From: a virus
Lineage: Duplodnaviria; Heunggongvirae; Uroviricota; Caudoviricetes
DNA: 47,077 bases
Virus record (IMG/VR): IMGVR_UViG_2541047907_000002
Span: 1-47,077 of that record
Direction: 5' to 3' (one strand)
The first letter of the stretch is position 1; each line of letters opens with the position of its first letter. This document shows, one piece after another, positions 15,935 through 21,633 of the stretch. The notes beneath the pieces are model-generated. The model was not told the DNA's origin, searched no databases, and saw only the letters and a program-made list of their open reading frames with translations. The position numbers and the translations under genes are program-made.

Positions 15935-15998
15935 AAGGCATATATTTCTTGCCAAATCTGATATTTTGCCGATTTTGTACGTGATGGCAAAGTAAGCA

Positions 15999-16023
15999 AA
16001 ACCCGCCGCCGAGCGGGTTTTTT
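15999..16023 (+). terminator. Intrinsic terminator (tR'-like), copy 1 of a repeated terminator-leader module
   Basis: Stem AAACCCGC/GCGGGTTT with 6 nt loop followed by TTTTTT; about 65 nt after the Q stop. Confidence 0.5.
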
Positions 16024-16146
16024 ATGCCTGAAAATTGGTGTAGTACGTTAAACGCGCTGGTGGTTGCGAATACTGGTCTTTCAGCTTGCTTGCTTTTTGG
16101 ACAAGAGTTATTGGTATGTCACGTTAACCAGAAAAGGAAAAAAGAC

Positions 16147-16344
16147 ATGCTAAAACAGCAGGATATGACCGAAACCGCCAGAGTGGTATTTAATGAATTA
16201 AGTGTCACCGAACCGGCGACCGTCGGGGAAATTGCGCAGAATACTTACCTTTCACGCGAACGCTGCCAGTTAATACTGACCCAGCTTGTTATGGCGGGTC
16301 TGGCAGATTATCAGTTCGGTTGTTACAGACGCCTTCCGCAGTGA
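16147..16344 (+). CDS. Small protein (65 aa), possible winged-helix regulator
   Basis: MLKQQDMTETARVVFNELSVTEPATVGEIAQNTYLSRERCQLILTQLVMAGL; a paralogous copy lies at 19791-20015. Confidence 0.45.
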   Translation: MLKQQDMTETARVVFNELSVTEPATVGEIAQNTYLSRERCQLILTQLVMAGLADYQFGCYRRLPQ

Positions 16345-16494
16345 AGGCTTTTTAATTTGTGGTAATGGGCGGCTGGTGGGTGTTAGCGGCACCTGCCAGC
16401 CATCTGCTCATGCGTTGGGATCACAAGCAAACCTCAGGCCCATCTGCTTTGCGCAAAAGCAGAATGAGCCTATCAGAGAAGTGCTTATTGATCT

Positions 16495-17547
16495 ATGGTT
16501 GATACTGTAAAAATATCCAGTTGTGAGTTGGTCAACGCTGATTGCCTGGAATTTATCCGGACCTTACCTGAAAACTCTGTCGATCTGATAGTCACGGACC
16601 CACCATACTTTAAAGTGAAACCTGAGGGCTGGGATAACCAGTGGAAGGGCGACGATGATTACCTGCAATGGCTGGACCAGTGTCTGGCGCAGTTCTGGCG
16701 GCTACTGAAGCCTGCCGGAAGTCTCTACCTGTTCTGTGGGCATCGCCTGGCATCTGATATCGAAATCATGATGCGTGAGCGCTTTAATGTGCTTAACCAT
16801 ATTATCTGGGCTAAGCCGTCCGGACGCTGGAACGGGTGCAACAAGGAAAGCCTGCGGGTGTATTTCCCTGCCACAGAGCGCATTTTGTTTGCAGAACATT
16901 ATCAGGGACCGTATCGCCCGAAAGATGATGGCTATGAGGCGAAGGGCAGGGCACTGAAACAGCATGTGATGGCCCCGCTGATTGCTTACTTTCGTGATGC
17001 GCGTGAATCACTGGGAATAACGTCAAAACAGATAGCGGAAGCTACCGGAAAGAAAAACATGGCTTCCCACTGGTTCAGTGCCAGTCAGTGGCAGCTGCCG
17101 AACAAAGGCGATTATCTGAAATTACAGGCGCTGTTTGCCCGGGTTGCCGAAGAGAAGCATCAGCGCGGTGAACTGGAAAAGCCGCACCACCAGCTGGTCA
17201 GCACATACAGTGAACTGAACCGGCAATATGCCAGTCTGCTGGAGGAGTACAAATCTCTTCGGCGTTATTTTTCCGTATCGGCTGCCGTTCCGTATACGGA
17301 TGTCTGGACGCACAAGCCCGTGCAGTATTATCCGGGCAAACATCCATGTGAAAAACCGTCGGATATGTTGCGTCAGATAATTACCGCCAGCAGTCGTCCG
17401 GGTGACCTGGTTGCGGACTTTTTTATGGGGTCGGGGTCAACAGTAAAAGCAGCACTGGCGCTGGGGCGCAGGGTATTAGGTGTTGAGCTTGAGTCAGAAC
17501 GTTTTGAGCAGACAGTGAAAGAGGTAAGTGGTCAGGGGTATATTTGA
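16495..17547 (+). CDS. Orphan DNA methyltransferase, beta-class (N6-adenine or N4-cytosine)
   Basis: 350 aa; N-terminal IVTDPPYF (motif IV) and C-terminal FFMGSGST (motif I) in the beta-class order; no restriction endonuclease candidate nearby. Confidence 0.75.
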   Translation: MVDTVKISSCELVNADCLEFIRTLPENSVDLIVTDPPYFKVKPEGWDNQWKGDDDYLQWLDQCLAQFWRLLKPAGSLYLFCGHRLASDIEIMMRERFNVLNHIIWAKPSGRWNGCNKESLRVYFPATERILFAEHYQGPYRPKDDGYEAKGRALKQHVMAPLIAYFRDARESLGITSKQIAEATGKKNMASHWFSASQWQLPNKGDYLKLQALFARVAEEKHQRGELEKPHHQLVSTYSELNRQYASLLEEYKSLRRYFSVSAAVPYTDVWTHKPVQYYPGKHPCEKPSDMLRQIITASSRPGDLVADFFMGSGSTVKAALALGRRVLGVELESERFEQTVKEVSGQGYI

Positions 17548-17667
17548 TAACAAAATCTTAAATATTTCGCTCATTTATTGTTAGCGTTCTTAATATTGGG
17601 TATTTTCAACAGTGCAGGATAACCCTGTAACGAAACTTAATCTGGTTCCATCATGAAAGTCTTTGCC

Positions 17668-17700
17668 AGTAGTCTCCGGATGGCTGGCTTTTTTTTGCGC
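17668..17700 (+). terminator. Putative intrinsic terminator downstream of the methyltransferase
   Basis: Short stem GCCAG/CTGGC followed by T8 (GCTGGCTTTTTTTT). Confidence 0.4.
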
Positions 17701-17780
17701 CAAATCGAAAATATTTTACAGTCTGATTGTGTGGGCGTATTTTTGTGATTTTTGTAACGTTTTCAGGCGTTTTGTATTAA

Positions 17781-18001
17781 TAGACTTTTTTCAGCGGCGC
17801 ATCCCGTGACGCAGCGGGGTTGAATGGCTGGTCTCCTTCACAAGCGCATACTGCGTGGAATCGCACAGCGGGTCATGGTTTAAGCCAGCCAGTGACTCAT
17901 CGGTAAAAATCCGACGCCGTCATGCTAATGACTATTCCATACTATCTGTCTGAATCCTGAGTGTCCTGAAGCCGGTAAATGAACTCTGTTACCGGCTTTT
18001 T
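17781..18001 (+). ncRNA. Candidate small RNA unit A (paralog of unit B)
   Basis: No ORF of 60 aa or more on either strand; conserved 5' block CAGCGGCGCATCCCGTGACGCAGCGGGG and internal block CCAGTGACTCATCGGTAAAAATCCGACGCC shared with unit B; ends in a 10 bp stem AAGCCGGTAA/TTACCGGCTT plus T5; upstream TGTATTAAT resembles an extended -10. Confidence 0.3.
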
Positions 18002-18189
18002 ATATCGGTATGTTGTGGAGATGCCGAAAGCCTCACATTTTTTGTGGTTGAATATCACCCTGTGAGTGAAAATAAGGTGCAGATAAAAAACTGCATGGTT
18101 TTTGCGTAATATCAAAAAAGCATTCCAGCCCCACAGGCTTTATAATTTTTTGTGATAGCCATAACTTTTCAGAATGTTCTGTGTTTTGT

Positions 18190-18400
18190 AGACTTTTTAA
18201 AGCGGCGCATCCCGTGATGCAGCGGGGCTGAGTGGTCAGGGGTTCCTTCAGATGTACAATTCACAGAAACACTCAGTGGGCCATGGTATTTGGCTGCCAG
18301 TGACTCATCGGTAAAAATCCGACGCCGCTGCTCCTTGTTCTTCACATGGTTTTCTTAGCGTATTTTAAGCCGGTTGATAAACTCCACTTCCGGCTTTCTT
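18190..18400 (+). ncRNA. Candidate small RNA unit B (paralog of unit A)
   Basis: Same two conserved blocks as unit A with divergent middle and 3' parts; ends in stem AAGCCGG/CCGGCTT followed by a T-run. Confidence 0.3.
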
Positions 18401-20765: not shown

Positions 20766-20792
20766 TTTCATCTGATTACTATTTTTCGATCC

Positions 20793-20868
20793 GGCCCTTT
20801 AGCTCAGTGGTGAGAGCGAGCGACTCATAATCGCCAGGTCGCTGGTTCAAATCCAGCAAGGGCCACCA
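20793..20868 (+). tRNA. tRNA with CAU anticodon, ileX-like (Ile2/lysidine type)
   Basis: Hand-folded cloverleaf: acceptor GGCCCTT/AAGGGCC, D-stem GCTC/GAGC, anticodon loop CTCATAA, T-loop TTCAAAT, 3' CCA; very similar to E. coli ileX as recalled. Confidence 0.8.
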
Positions 20869-20869
20869 A

Positions 20870-20946
20870 CCGCCACTAGCTCATCAGGAAAGAGCATCAA
20901 CCTTCTAAGTTGACGGCGCGAGGTTCGAGTCCTCGGTGGTGGGCCA
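20870..20946 (+). tRNA. tRNA-Arg (UCU anticodon)
   Basis: Hand-folded: acceptor CCGCCAC/GTGGTGG (one G-U pair), anticodon loop CTTCTAA, T-arm CGAGG-TTCGAGT-CCTCG, 3' CCA; unusual C1 start. Confidence 0.6.
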
Positions 20947-20948
20947 GT

Positions 20949-21024
20949 GCCGACTTAGCTCAGCAGGCAGAGCAACTGACTTGTAATCAGTAGGTCACCA
21001 GTTCGATTCCGGTGGTCGACACCA
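20949..21024 (+). tRNA. tRNA-Thr-like (UGU anticodon), with stem mismatches
   Basis: Hand-folded: anticodon stem ACTGA/TCAGT and loop CTTGTAA are clean, but the acceptor and T stems each carry one mismatch; may be functional or degenerate. Confidence 0.5.
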
Positions 21025-21027
21025 TAT

Positions 21028-21102
21028 GCGGGTATCGTATAATGGCTATTACCTCAGCCTTCCAAGCTGATGATGCGGGTTCGATTCCCGCTACCCGCTC
21101 CA
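21028..21102 (+). tRNA. tRNA-Gly (UCC anticodon)
   Basis: Hand-folded: perfect acceptor GCGGGTA/TACCCGC, anticodon loop CTTCCAA, T-arm GCGGG-TTCGATT-CCCGC, 3' CCA. Confidence 0.75.
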
Positions 21103-21449
21103 ACATTTGCAAAAGCCTTATTGCAGCACTGGCGTATTTTTTATTACGTGGGAGCAGGGAAGGCATCCTGTTCTCTGGCTAAGATTTTGGGCCAGGTTAG
21201 CCTCAGTGCTGGATTTTTTACGACAGCAGAATGGTGCATTATCGGTGGAGATTTTGTTTTTCCTGGCAGGGGCGGTGATGCATCATTCTGGTGTTGTAAA
21301 TAACACTGTCGGGGTGTTCCTCAGAGCGAGGGTGGTTAAAAGAGTCGGTTTAGCGGGAAATCACAGTATTCATACAGGACGGAATACTTCGGGAGGCACC
21401 CGACACCTCGGTTTTATTACAATTAAGAATGTATCTCTTGCATTGACCA

Positions 21450-21474
21450 ACCGCCGTATCCGGCGGTTTTTTTA
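21450..21474 (+). terminator. Intrinsic terminator downstream of the tRNA array
   Basis: Stem ACCGCCG/CGGCGGT with 4 nt loop followed by T7. Confidence 0.5.
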
Positions 21475-21633
21475 TTCGATTTCTTCATGGTTCGCTATTG
21501 TGGACCTTTTCCACGTATTTTCTGGCGGTTATTATGACGGCTTGTTTCTTTGTTCATAAGAGGATTGATGCTGTGATCTCTTATGCAGATATCAGAGCAA
21601 AACAGGCCGAAATTCTGAAGGCTGAGCAGGAAT

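Follow-up and report, generated by a model that had tools for sequence, protein, structure and literature searches.

A terminator–leader module occurring three times in the Q-to-lysis interval of an stx-negative lambdoid prophage

The interval between the late antiterminator gene Q and the lysis genes is where lambdoid phages carry Shiga toxin (Stx) and other conversion genes. We analyzed this interval in the virus record IMGVR_UViG_2541047907_000002 of IMG/VR, whose 47,077 nucleotides (nt), hereafter the window, represent an intact-looking, stx-negative lambdoid prophage. A first-pass annotation of the DNA had noticed ~6 kb of cargo between Q and the lysis genes. The interval from Q1 (Pfam PF06323) to the first holin gene (PF16931) actually measures 6.3 kb, and it extends to the holin at 22262 rather than ending at 21480 as had been annotated. 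Within it, a module made of a terminator hairpin and a leader of ~55 nt (module T) occurs three times. The region is probably a hypervariable Q-to-lysis leader that results from an out-of-register join of the late regions of two phages, plus an older insertion of a moron encoding a membrane protein. It is an unusually legible record of rebuilding, and it illustrates accessory gene swapping at terminators in relatives of Stx phages: two alternative leader and cargo cassettes, carried singly elsewhere, are stacked here.

Three copies of module T and their surroundings

A profile of module T (nhmmer) gave exactly three matches in the window, all on the + strand, and the coordinates proposed for the copies in the first-pass annotation were accurate. 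The copies and their two strong hairpins are as follows:

15997-16074, + strand: copy 1, leader running to 16146 (84 bits)
15998-16021: hairpin of copy 1 (-13.0 kcal/mol), T-run at 16018-16023, the first four bases of which are also the 3' end of the stem
18750-18827, + strand: copy 2 (79.8 bits)
18753-18772: hairpin of copy 2 (-11.4 kcal/mol), T-run at 18773-18778; first terminator after the candidate promoter pR'2
19643-19722, + strand: copy 3, full leader running to 19790 (80.8 bits)

The threefold repeat was borne out by repeat search, nhmmer and blastn, with E-values of 3e-87 to 8e-7 in the last of these. The alignment of the three copies proposed at the outset found them significantly similar: pairwise blastn matched copies 1 and 3 over 309 nt (83.5%, E=3e-87), copies 1 and 2 over 65 nt (78.5%, E=1e-9) and copies 2 and 3 over 66 nt (75.8%, E=8e-7). 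The repeat search returned the module as family D2 (16018-16080, with 18771-18833 at 68% and 19665-19727 at 83%), and it paired sequences further downstream in family D1 (16133-16302 and 19777-19946, 83%) and family D5 (16371-16417 and 19942-19988, 85%). A 63-nt core was matched at 52/63 and 43/63 positions in the other two copies, the next best site in the window reaching 31/63 and the best of 200 shuffles 36/63.

The three copies are not equivalent. Terminator and leader are present in each, as had been claimed, but copy 2 consists of the hairpin and ~50 nt of proximal leader only, and the hairpin of copy 3 has decayed (-5.7 kcal/mol). The hairpins of copies 1 and 2 have U6 directly 3'. Copies 1 and 3 run on for ~310 nt into paralogous small open reading frames (ORFs), and copy 2 precedes the membrane-protein gene. 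The first-pass annotation had recognized both the paralogues and the membrane gene, but had assigned the small ORFs to the first two copies and the membrane gene to the third.

The surroundings of the copies have relatives of two kinds. Positions 15200-17520 are 86-94% identical to the layout of Q1-type and phiP27-type phages (Q, T, small ORF, methyltransferase). Positions 18522-21013 are 88-93% identical to one contiguous region of Escherichia coli CFIAFB20180540, where the order is an intact Q of 273 amino acids (aa), T, membrane gene, T, small ORF, AraC gene, tRNAs and stx2. The features of these two stretches in the window are the following:

15239..15934, + strand: Q1, intact late antiterminator gene (PF06323, E=1.6e-92, 216/220 profile positions), following RusA as in E. 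coli relatives
15918..15946, + strand: candidate late promoter pR'1 (TTGCAA-17-TATATT)
16147..16344, + strand: small gene of 65 aa (phrog_331, PHROG E=1.4e-37; weak TrmB-like helix-turn-helix (HTH) match)
16331-16348, + strand: terminator hairpin of the small gene itself (terminator scan and folding)
16371..16417, + strand: 47-nt linker, common to small ORF-methyltransferase and small ORF-AraC junctions, after which the cargo diverges
16495..17547, + strand: DNA methyltransferase gene, cargo allele A (PF01555, E=5e-43; PADLOC MTase_II, E=2e-154)
18522..18672, + strand: truncated Q2, the last 50 codons of a lambda-type Q (PF03589, E=5e-8, profile positions 47-87)
18678..18720, + strand: putative orphan lambda-like late promoter pR'2 (TTGATT-16-(TG)G-TAAATT), then AACGATGGG at 18712-18720
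18850..19631, + strand: membrane-protein moron, gene at 18912-19631 (PHROG phrog_1521, E=7e-88; Pfam PF27470)
19791..20015, + strand: small ORF', decaying paralogue of the 65-aa gene (10/52 residues changed)
20011..20765, + strand: AraC-family regulator unit, cargo allele B, gene at 20052-20765 (Pfam HTH_AraC and HTH_18)
20793..21102, + strand: tRNA cluster Met (CAT; Met/Ile-type), Arg (TCT), Thr (TGT), Gly (TCC) (ARAGORN and Rfam)

The second stretch opens inside a Q gene. The Q2 remnant is 88% identical at the nt level to the 3' end of the intact Q of CFIAFB20180540, with homology starting at position 4350 of locus L004, and that intact Q is 31% identical to lambda Q (E=8e-39). The -10 element TAAATT of pR'2 and AACGATGGG have the same sequence and spacing as in lambda pR', and the pR'2 region is conserved downstream of the intact Q2 in L004. 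E. coli Stx2e, Stx2k and Stx2d prophages likewise have the membrane gene between two T copies, and the membrane gene-small ORF-AraC cassette also occurs behind a Q1-type Q in other Stx2 strains and in phage phiSTEC1575-Stx2k. From the match of this stretch to a contiguous E. coli region, the Q2 remnant and pR'2, copies 2 and 3 are identified, as far as sequence can tell, as a pre-existing unit with the membrane moron between its T copies, and copy 1 as the unit of the resident Q1.

One possible origin is tandem duplication inside a single phage genome with later divergence of the copies, nothing being acquired from other phages. Over >300 nt, copies 1 and 3 repeat each other in direct orientation on one strand, a small ORF paralogue follows each of them, and copy 3 is no nearer to its E. 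coli homologues (79-83%) than to copy 1 (83.5%), as such a history would predict. Yet the surroundings of copies 2 and 3 are 88-98.6% identical to the contiguous E. coli prophage cassette, including the 3' end of a Q of another family and its own pR', and the T-bracketed membrane unit exists in phages that have only that one cassette. Moreover, duplication cannot create a truncated foreign Q gene or the relic of a 933W-type leader described below. We therefore hold this origin to be very unlikely.

Repeats of 65-310 nt can in principle mislead assemblers, and a chimeric misassembly had to be considered. Starting from the exact methyltransferase protein in 72 blocks of a public assembly collection, 24 contigs were read, and 8 distinct neighborhoods are shown. 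The whole composite was found in seven of these eight, at 99.4-99.99% identity, and another 15 contigs are similar to three of the seven. Because of this recurrence, the composite arrangement is real and circulating. The same order in seven or more independent NCBI assemblies, with contigs of 0.2-1.8 Mb, and the identity of only 76-84% between the copies, which makes them too divergent to collapse, leave misassembly with practically no credibility. Among 5,426 complete E. coli genomes, none carried the composite at ≥80% in one place.

Module T in related phages and at breakpoints

To describe the module beyond the window, we surveyed 87 loci, that is, 80 IMG/VR loci found via the small protein, several E. 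coli and phage loci, and the window. Among the IMG/VR loci and several of the E. coli loci, T was present once in 70, twice in 4 and three times in none. It follows Q genes of at least three families (PF06323, lambda-type PF03589 and the Q933 type), and the series T-small ORF-methyltransferase was found behind all three; some loci had no Q recognized with the panel used. In O157:H7, the small ORF-AraC unit lies behind a DUF1133 gene, at a locus that was not scanned for T. The terminator–leader and the small conserved gene are thus common to phages with unrelated Q proteins.

Junction alignment showed what is shared. The stretch from the Q stop codon to the hairpin varies with the Q family, that of Q1 being kept only among Q1-type loci, and the hairpin, the T-run and ~50 nt beyond are common to all. 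Further on, there are two sequence classes: either a nearly invariant 75 nt leading to the 65-aa ORF, or the membrane-protein gene. The 39 distinct hairpin sequences all fold. The 31 lying directly after Q or pR' (after the GIY-YIG gene in phiP27) mostly have -10 to -17 kcal/mol, with four weaker ones, to -5.6, and in every relative the hairpins behind the membrane gene are weak (-2.2 to -8.3 kcal/mol), as is copy 3 in the window. Mean pairwise identity was 56% for the upstream flank and hairpin (alignment columns 1-27, with up to 8 nt of upstream flank), 76% for the proximal leader and 93% for the 75-nt distal leader (55 sequences). The last value is above that of codon position 3 in the small ORF (89.5%), where codon positions 1 and 2 reach 99.9%. 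The 65-aa protein was identical in 82 of 86 homologues, a sample biased to close matches, despite up to 11 synonymous changes, a pattern that indicates extreme purifying selection on the gene. Since the hairpin and leader are shared behind several Q families and the small gene is so constrained, module T reads as a generic first intrinsic terminator after pR' together with the leader of a strongly constrained first late gene.

The comparison with related prophages that the first-pass annotation had proposed showed cargo differing exactly at the T modules. After the 47-nt linker, relatives carry either a methyltransferase or an AraC gene, the two alternating. Genes are also inserted between Q and the small ORF, and two T copies flank two of the three kinds (the membrane-protein gene and orf33 of the Stx2k phage); the third, the GIY-YIG gene of phiP27, has one detectable T. 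In phiP27 (L003 203-1432), this nuclease gene lies between Q and a pR'-933-like -10/start region preceding T, and could have entered the late-control region as a mobile nuclease gene.

High conservation of the distal leader raised the question of whether the repeats are kept by selection as regulatory gates, with a Q-dependent terminator for each cargo gene and a leader acting as operator or riboregulator, e.g., for the small HTH protein. The distal leader is at least as conserved as the synonymous sites of the small gene, and hairpin structure is maintained across the 39 different sequences. A possible 9-bp helix (16110-16152), in which UGGUAUGUC pairs with GACAUGCUA, would sequester the start codon of the 65-aa gene, and its two variable positions change only to G-U pairs (55 sequences). 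Against this, RNAalifold on the same 55 sequences found no compensatory base-pair change in the leader and only this one wobble-tolerant helix, and single-sequence folds of the leader were no better than shuffles (z=+0.3, +0.25). Copy 2 has no conserved distal leader, the hairpins of copy 3 and of every T downstream of the membrane gene have decayed (-2 to -8 kcal/mol), small ORF' is degenerating, and a single copy is enough in most relatives (70/80). Selection for repeated gates is thus an unlikely explanation of the threefold repeat.

The leader was also considered as coding sequence. In copies 1 and 3, an ATG or GTG after the T-run is in phase with the small ORF. This candidate was rejected: three 1-nt indels shift the frame between copies 1 and 3, the frame of copy 2 closes after 16 codons, and in E. 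coli copies ATA or stop codons in the frame occur instead. The nearly invariant 19-mer TTATTGGTATGTCACGTTA, two positions of which vary in some relatives (e.g., TGGTGTG), had no match in species-representative genomes. For the 65-aa protein, AlphaFold run without an alignment gave three helices at a predicted local distance difference test score (pLDDT) of 53, too weak for a fold search, and sequence searches of the PDB were uninformative.

The positions at which related phages part company bear on how cargo is exchanged. The eighth neighborhood, L011 (GCA_053107515.1), is a sibling prophage that is 99.93% identical to the window up to 18775. The two sequences part at the T-run of copy 2 and meet again at 22121, within the terminator that precedes the holin, so that both boundaries of the swap are terminator hairpins. 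The cargo of L011 replaces the membrane gene, small ORF', AraC gene and tRNAs, and at L011 8281-10789 comprises PDC-M18A/B candidate defense genes (PADLOC, E=1e-195 and 5e-75) and a phrog_5091 gene. A near-identical sibling has thus swapped the regulator cassette for a candidate defense system between two terminators.

These boundaries could suggest that T is the attachment site of a site-specific, integron-like cassette capture: T copies do flank inserted genes, and the ends of two independent swaps lie at terminator hairpins. However, the divergence points fall 0-3, ~12 or ~50 nt after the hairpin in different cases; 933W-type phages leave the common leader ~12 nt after the T-type hairpin, and the membrane moron leaves it ~50 nt after. 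The hairpin stretch is only 56% identical between phages, the Q2 junction lies inside coding sequence, and no recombinase gene was found between Q and the holin in the ORF list or by Pfam scan. Site-specific capture is therefore extremely unlikely. Since the junctions cluster at the terminator but not at one nucleotide, the pattern fits illegitimate or short-homology exchange beside conserved blocks.

Relics, candidate small RNAs and remaining cargo

Four features of the interval had been missed by the first-pass annotation: the truncated second Q with its lambda-like pR', a StxS-like relic, three STnc100-like elements and the decay of small ORF'. The second and third of these, with the features that close the interval, are listed here:

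17541..17700, + strand: StxS relic, what remains of a 933W-type late leader: two-thirds of StxS (3' part), in diverged form, with a tR'-933-type terminator
17740..17998, + strand: S1, STnc100/PasD-like element ending in a terminator (Rfam RF02076, 27.6 bits, full model length)
18147..18410, + strand: S2, STnc100/PasD-like element (RF02076, 22.5 bits, full-length)
21283..21477, + strand: S3, STnc100-like element (Rfam 27.1 bits) with a strong terminator at 21449-21475 (-13.4 kcal/mol)
21634..22014, + strand: orf126, last cargo gene (phrog_5091, PHROG E=5e-39), 31% identical to the last cargo gene of L011
22106..22166, + strand: homologue of the stx2A 5' flank, 78% identical to the 60 nt before stx2A in Stx2k and 933W-type phages
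22222-22243, + strand: last terminator (terminator scan and folding)
22262-22654, + strand: first holin gene, start of the lysis cassette (PF16931, E=2.5e-22)

StxS is a small RNA (sRNA) produced by early termination at tR' in Stx phages (PMC7547250). The relic in the window lies directly after the stop codon of the methyltransferase gene and has neither pR' nor Q. It matches Stx phages at the site of StxS with 78% identity over 95 nt (compare L007 1494-1650), with a diverged middle part and a 6-nt gap, and ends in a hairpin at 17665-17688 followed by a U-run at 17689-17696 (-13.8 kcal/mol). Homology covers only StxS positions ~110-258; the first ~100 nt and the promoter are absent, and GUAUU reads CAGUG. 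We thus classify 17541-17700, judging from its sequence, as a relic and not as a member of the StxS sRNA. In the other direction, 74 nt of the methyltransferase 3' end survive in 933W-type phages immediately behind tR' (window 17443-17516, L007 1659-1732).

Elements S1 to S3, of ~200-260 nt, each have a terminator-like hairpin at the end. They align to RF02076 over its full length with shared core motifs, all below the gathering score of 47. S1 and S2 are paralogous, 79-89% identical and 408 nt apart, and had no match above ~65-70% identity in the complete E. coli genomes or the phage collection. Over the whole island, only the tRNAs reached the Rfam gathering score, and neither AgvB nor AsxR turned up at E≤1. 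A 2026 preprint on Pas sRNAs places the PasD and STnc100 prophage sRNAs near PF03589 Q genes and holins, and also invokes recombination between prophages (10.64898/2026.05.13.724894). A 117-aa ORF at 21206-21559 (+ strand), annotated by gene callers in public assemblies, is probably not a gene, since it overlaps S3, has no family match and shows an odd composition.

Turning to the cargo genes, the methyltransferase gene is 89-90% identical at the nt level to those of phiP27 and E. coli K99B up to ~17520. No restriction enzyme gene was found next to it in the ORF list or by Pfam and PADLOC, and it was the only PADLOC match among the cargo proteins of the window. The membrane gene, present in 8 of the 87 surveyed loci and absent from most, has a candidate promoter (TTGACT-18-TATGTA, 18850-18879), a motif kept in all five loci that have the gene. 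Its product is named "STM1630 family protein" in one RefSeq relative; in the literature, no function was found under TfpB or STM1630. As had been proposed, the small ORF at 19791-20015 is related to that at 16147-16344, but this second copy is decaying: a 73-nt deletion removes its C-terminus and the terminator, which are intact in AraC-linked E. coli copies, so that small ORF' looks like a pseudogene.

The AraC gene has a conserved TATAAT in its candidate promoter (20011-20016) and, like the membrane gene, a low GC content (0.385-0.42, i.e., 0.39 for the membrane gene and 0.41 for the AraC gene, vs 0.49-0.55 for the backbone). Its product matched the NCBIfam model YdeO over the full length (E=4e-30, positions 1-231 of 253), below the curated cut-off, and GadX likewise below the cut-off. 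A gene with 92.4% nt identity to the AraC gene lies, likewise in a small ORF-AraC-tRNA context, in the listed O157:H7 genomes, at two to three places in most of them and at one in some. The prophage regulators PsrA and PsrB are 90% identical to each other and are found only in prophages (PMC10877973). The AraC protein of the window is probably of this Psr type and YdeO/GadX-like. As for the tRNAs, most E. coli relatives have Ile-Arg-Arg, and the Thr and Gly genes of the window lie beyond the end of homology with the Stx2 cassettes (21013).

The first-pass annotation had stated that a toxin position is present here without a toxin. This proved right: after the tRNAs, E. coli relatives with the same cassette have stx2AB, and the window has S3, two small ORFs and only the 60-nt 5' flank of stx2A. 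This flank, with a strong terminator (22106-22133, -17.5 kcal/mol), is fused directly to the pre-holin sequence, and 22106-22166 has the appearance of a toxin slot left empty. An stx-negative E. coli prophage with such an intact stx-type slot next to ompW bears on the movement of toxin cassettes.

The rest of the prophage is conventional in order: integrase, early region, nin/RusA, Q and lysis cassette, the holins and endolysin running from 22262 on the same strand as Q. From ~25.2 kb, large + strand ORFs (169 to 1049 aa), not family-scanned, occupy the position of terminase, head and tail genes. The prophage adjoins ompW in an E. coli host. An Escherichia albertii host, suspected from identities of ~87%, was ruled out by the flanking kch-cls genes, which are 100% identical to E. 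coli. In the early-left region, Rfam matched C4 antisense RNA (80 bits, 4987-5074, - strand) beside isrK (65 bits, 5099-5175, - strand), both inside the 5' part of an ORF (4372-5226, - strand) whose product has Phage_ASH and Phage_pRha domains.

Proposed history, transcription and likeness to known systems

Taken as a whole, the interval suggests two separate events, a better description than the repeated moron acquisition of the first-pass annotation, whose proposal of moron acquisition or recombination at a hotspot is otherwise supported. In the older event, the membrane-protein moron would have been inserted ~50 nt after a terminator, leaving a T copy on each side. In the second, a single out-of-register and non-homologous join would have linked the cargo end of one phage (A: Q1-T-small ORF-methyltransferase-StxS relic-S1/S2) to the interior of the Q gene of another (B: truncated Q2-pR'2-T-membrane gene-T-small ORF'-AraC-tRNAs, and on to the holin). 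Such a hybrid would keep every essential gene once as well as both cargo sets, and its redundant second small ORF would decay. One crossover is the simplest history that we can infer for the stack. More generally, terminator hairpins and the conserved small-ORF block would serve as boundaries for the exchange of cassettes between co-resident prophages.

The way in which the locus would work can be drawn from lambda and Stx-phage biology. Lambda pR' is constitutive and yields a short terminated RNA, the 6S RNA, and lambda Q renders RNA polymerase insensitive to terminators further downstream. In a lysogen, transcription would likewise start constitutively at pR'1 and at the orphan pR'2 and end at T copies 1 and 2, with RNAs of ~65-75 nt as products, and the AT-rich membrane and AraC genes would use promoters of their own. 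For pR'1, the predicted short RNA is ~70 nt long (~15953-16023), its early transcribed region has a GATATT motif as read off the sequence, and a 74-nt RNA folds at -23.3 kcal/mol (z=-2.8); Rfam returned only a 20-bit isrK-like match for it, probably noise. On induction, Q1 would load at pR'1 and the modified polymerase would pass ~ten + strand terminators in 6.3 kb before reaching the lysis and head/tail genes, so that all the cargo would be transcribed. Since each Q family has promoter regions of its own, pR'2 is an unlikely target of Q1.

Four points weigh against this overall picture. First, all promoters are consensus-level predictions, scoring 9/12 for pR'1 and 8/12 plus an extended -10 for pR'2. 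Second, the T-type hairpin of 933W-type phages, AACCCGCCGATGCGCGGGTTTTTTT, falls within the StxS precursor of 258 nt that PMC7547250 mapped, at ~+20 to +50 (L007, AP004402, ~1409-1440); the paper does not discuss the hairpin. It could be a leaky terminator there or have another role; T is thus not a complete stop in these phages, and its equation with tR' is inferred. Third, copy 3 is about equally far from copy 1 and from its E. coli homologues (83.5% and 79-83%), so that its descent with the AraC cassette is argued from its flanks and not from its own sequence. Fourth, S1 and S2 have an origin without matches: since nothing exceeded ~65-70% identity, assigning 17635-18521 to the end of the phage A cargo region is a conjecture.

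The relics of three late-control systems are kept in one leader, and the pR'2 unit has lost its Q with promoter, pause element and terminator sequences intact. A tempting but doubtful idea is that such orphan promoter-terminator units are not inert scars and have been co-opted, after the StxS precedent, as constitutive regulatory sRNA genes. The candidates may include the ~70-nt pR'1-T RNA, the ~65-nt pR'2 RNA, a StxS-like RNA from the methyltransferase 3' untranslated region (UTR) and S1-S3. The orphan pR'-terminator units make the idea testable. If it were true, the Q-to-lysis interval would be a nursery in which dead late promoters turn into riboregulators directed at the host, with T supplying sRNAs with a generic 3' end that is portable.

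Both mosaic exchange and morons belong to the textbook knowledge of phage genomics, and the locus does not overturn current views of mosaic phage evolution. Its components are all known at the sequence level; what is new is the arrangement and not the kind of system. We did not find described two cargo alleles in tandem, three late-control relics in one leader, or one terminator–leader that occurs across Q families and flanks inserts.

Late control in lambda follows the plan predicted here, in which one strand carries Q, then a constitutive promoter, a short terminated leader RNA and the lysis genes. With it, the orphan unit at 18678-18778 shares the TAAATT -10 element and AACGATGGG at equal spacing, and the lost Q2 is a homologue of lambda Q. 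Unlike lambda, where 677 nt and one terminator separate the Q stop codon from S, the window has 6.3 kb, ~ten terminators and the relics of two further late-control units. Its active Q is of another family (PF06323), and its predicted leader RNAs (~65-75 nt) are shorter than the 6S RNA of lambda (194 nt).

The closest likeness in gene content is to Stx phages (phiP27, phiSTEC1575-Stx2k, 933W/Sp5 and E. coli Stx2e, Stx2k and Stx2d prophages). They share Q, T, small ORF, methyltransferase or AraC gene, tRNAs, toxin slot and holin at 88-94% nt identity, as well as the ompW site, which is also indicated by the deposited names of Stx2a phages (PPompW). The window differs in having the 5' flank but no stx genes, in carrying both cargo alleles in tandem, and in its truncated Q2 and StxS relic. 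The short-RNA logic of StxS (PMC7547250) is predicted for pR'1 and pR'2 as well, and 17541-17700 is homologous to the 3' part and terminator of StxS. The relic nonetheless has neither pR' nor the first ~100 nt, reads CAGUG in place of the GUAUU RNase E site and sits in the position of a methyltransferase 3' UTR. Similarly, psrA (z1789), psrB (z2104) and patE (z0321) of enterohemorrhagic E. coli (PMC10877973) are AraC-family, and our YdeO/GadX-like gene, also in a lambdoid prophage, was compared with them indirectly, via the O157:H7 gene.

Finally, the membrane and AraC genes resemble lambdoid morons, a concept reportedly due to Hendrix, Juhala and colleagues: they are present or absent among similar phages, AT-rich, and accompanied by promoter-like motifs and, after the membrane gene, a weak terminator copy. 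They differ from these in that the membrane moron is bracketed by a duplicated resident terminator and leader, and in that whole multi-gene cassettes, not single genes only, are exchanged between terminators.

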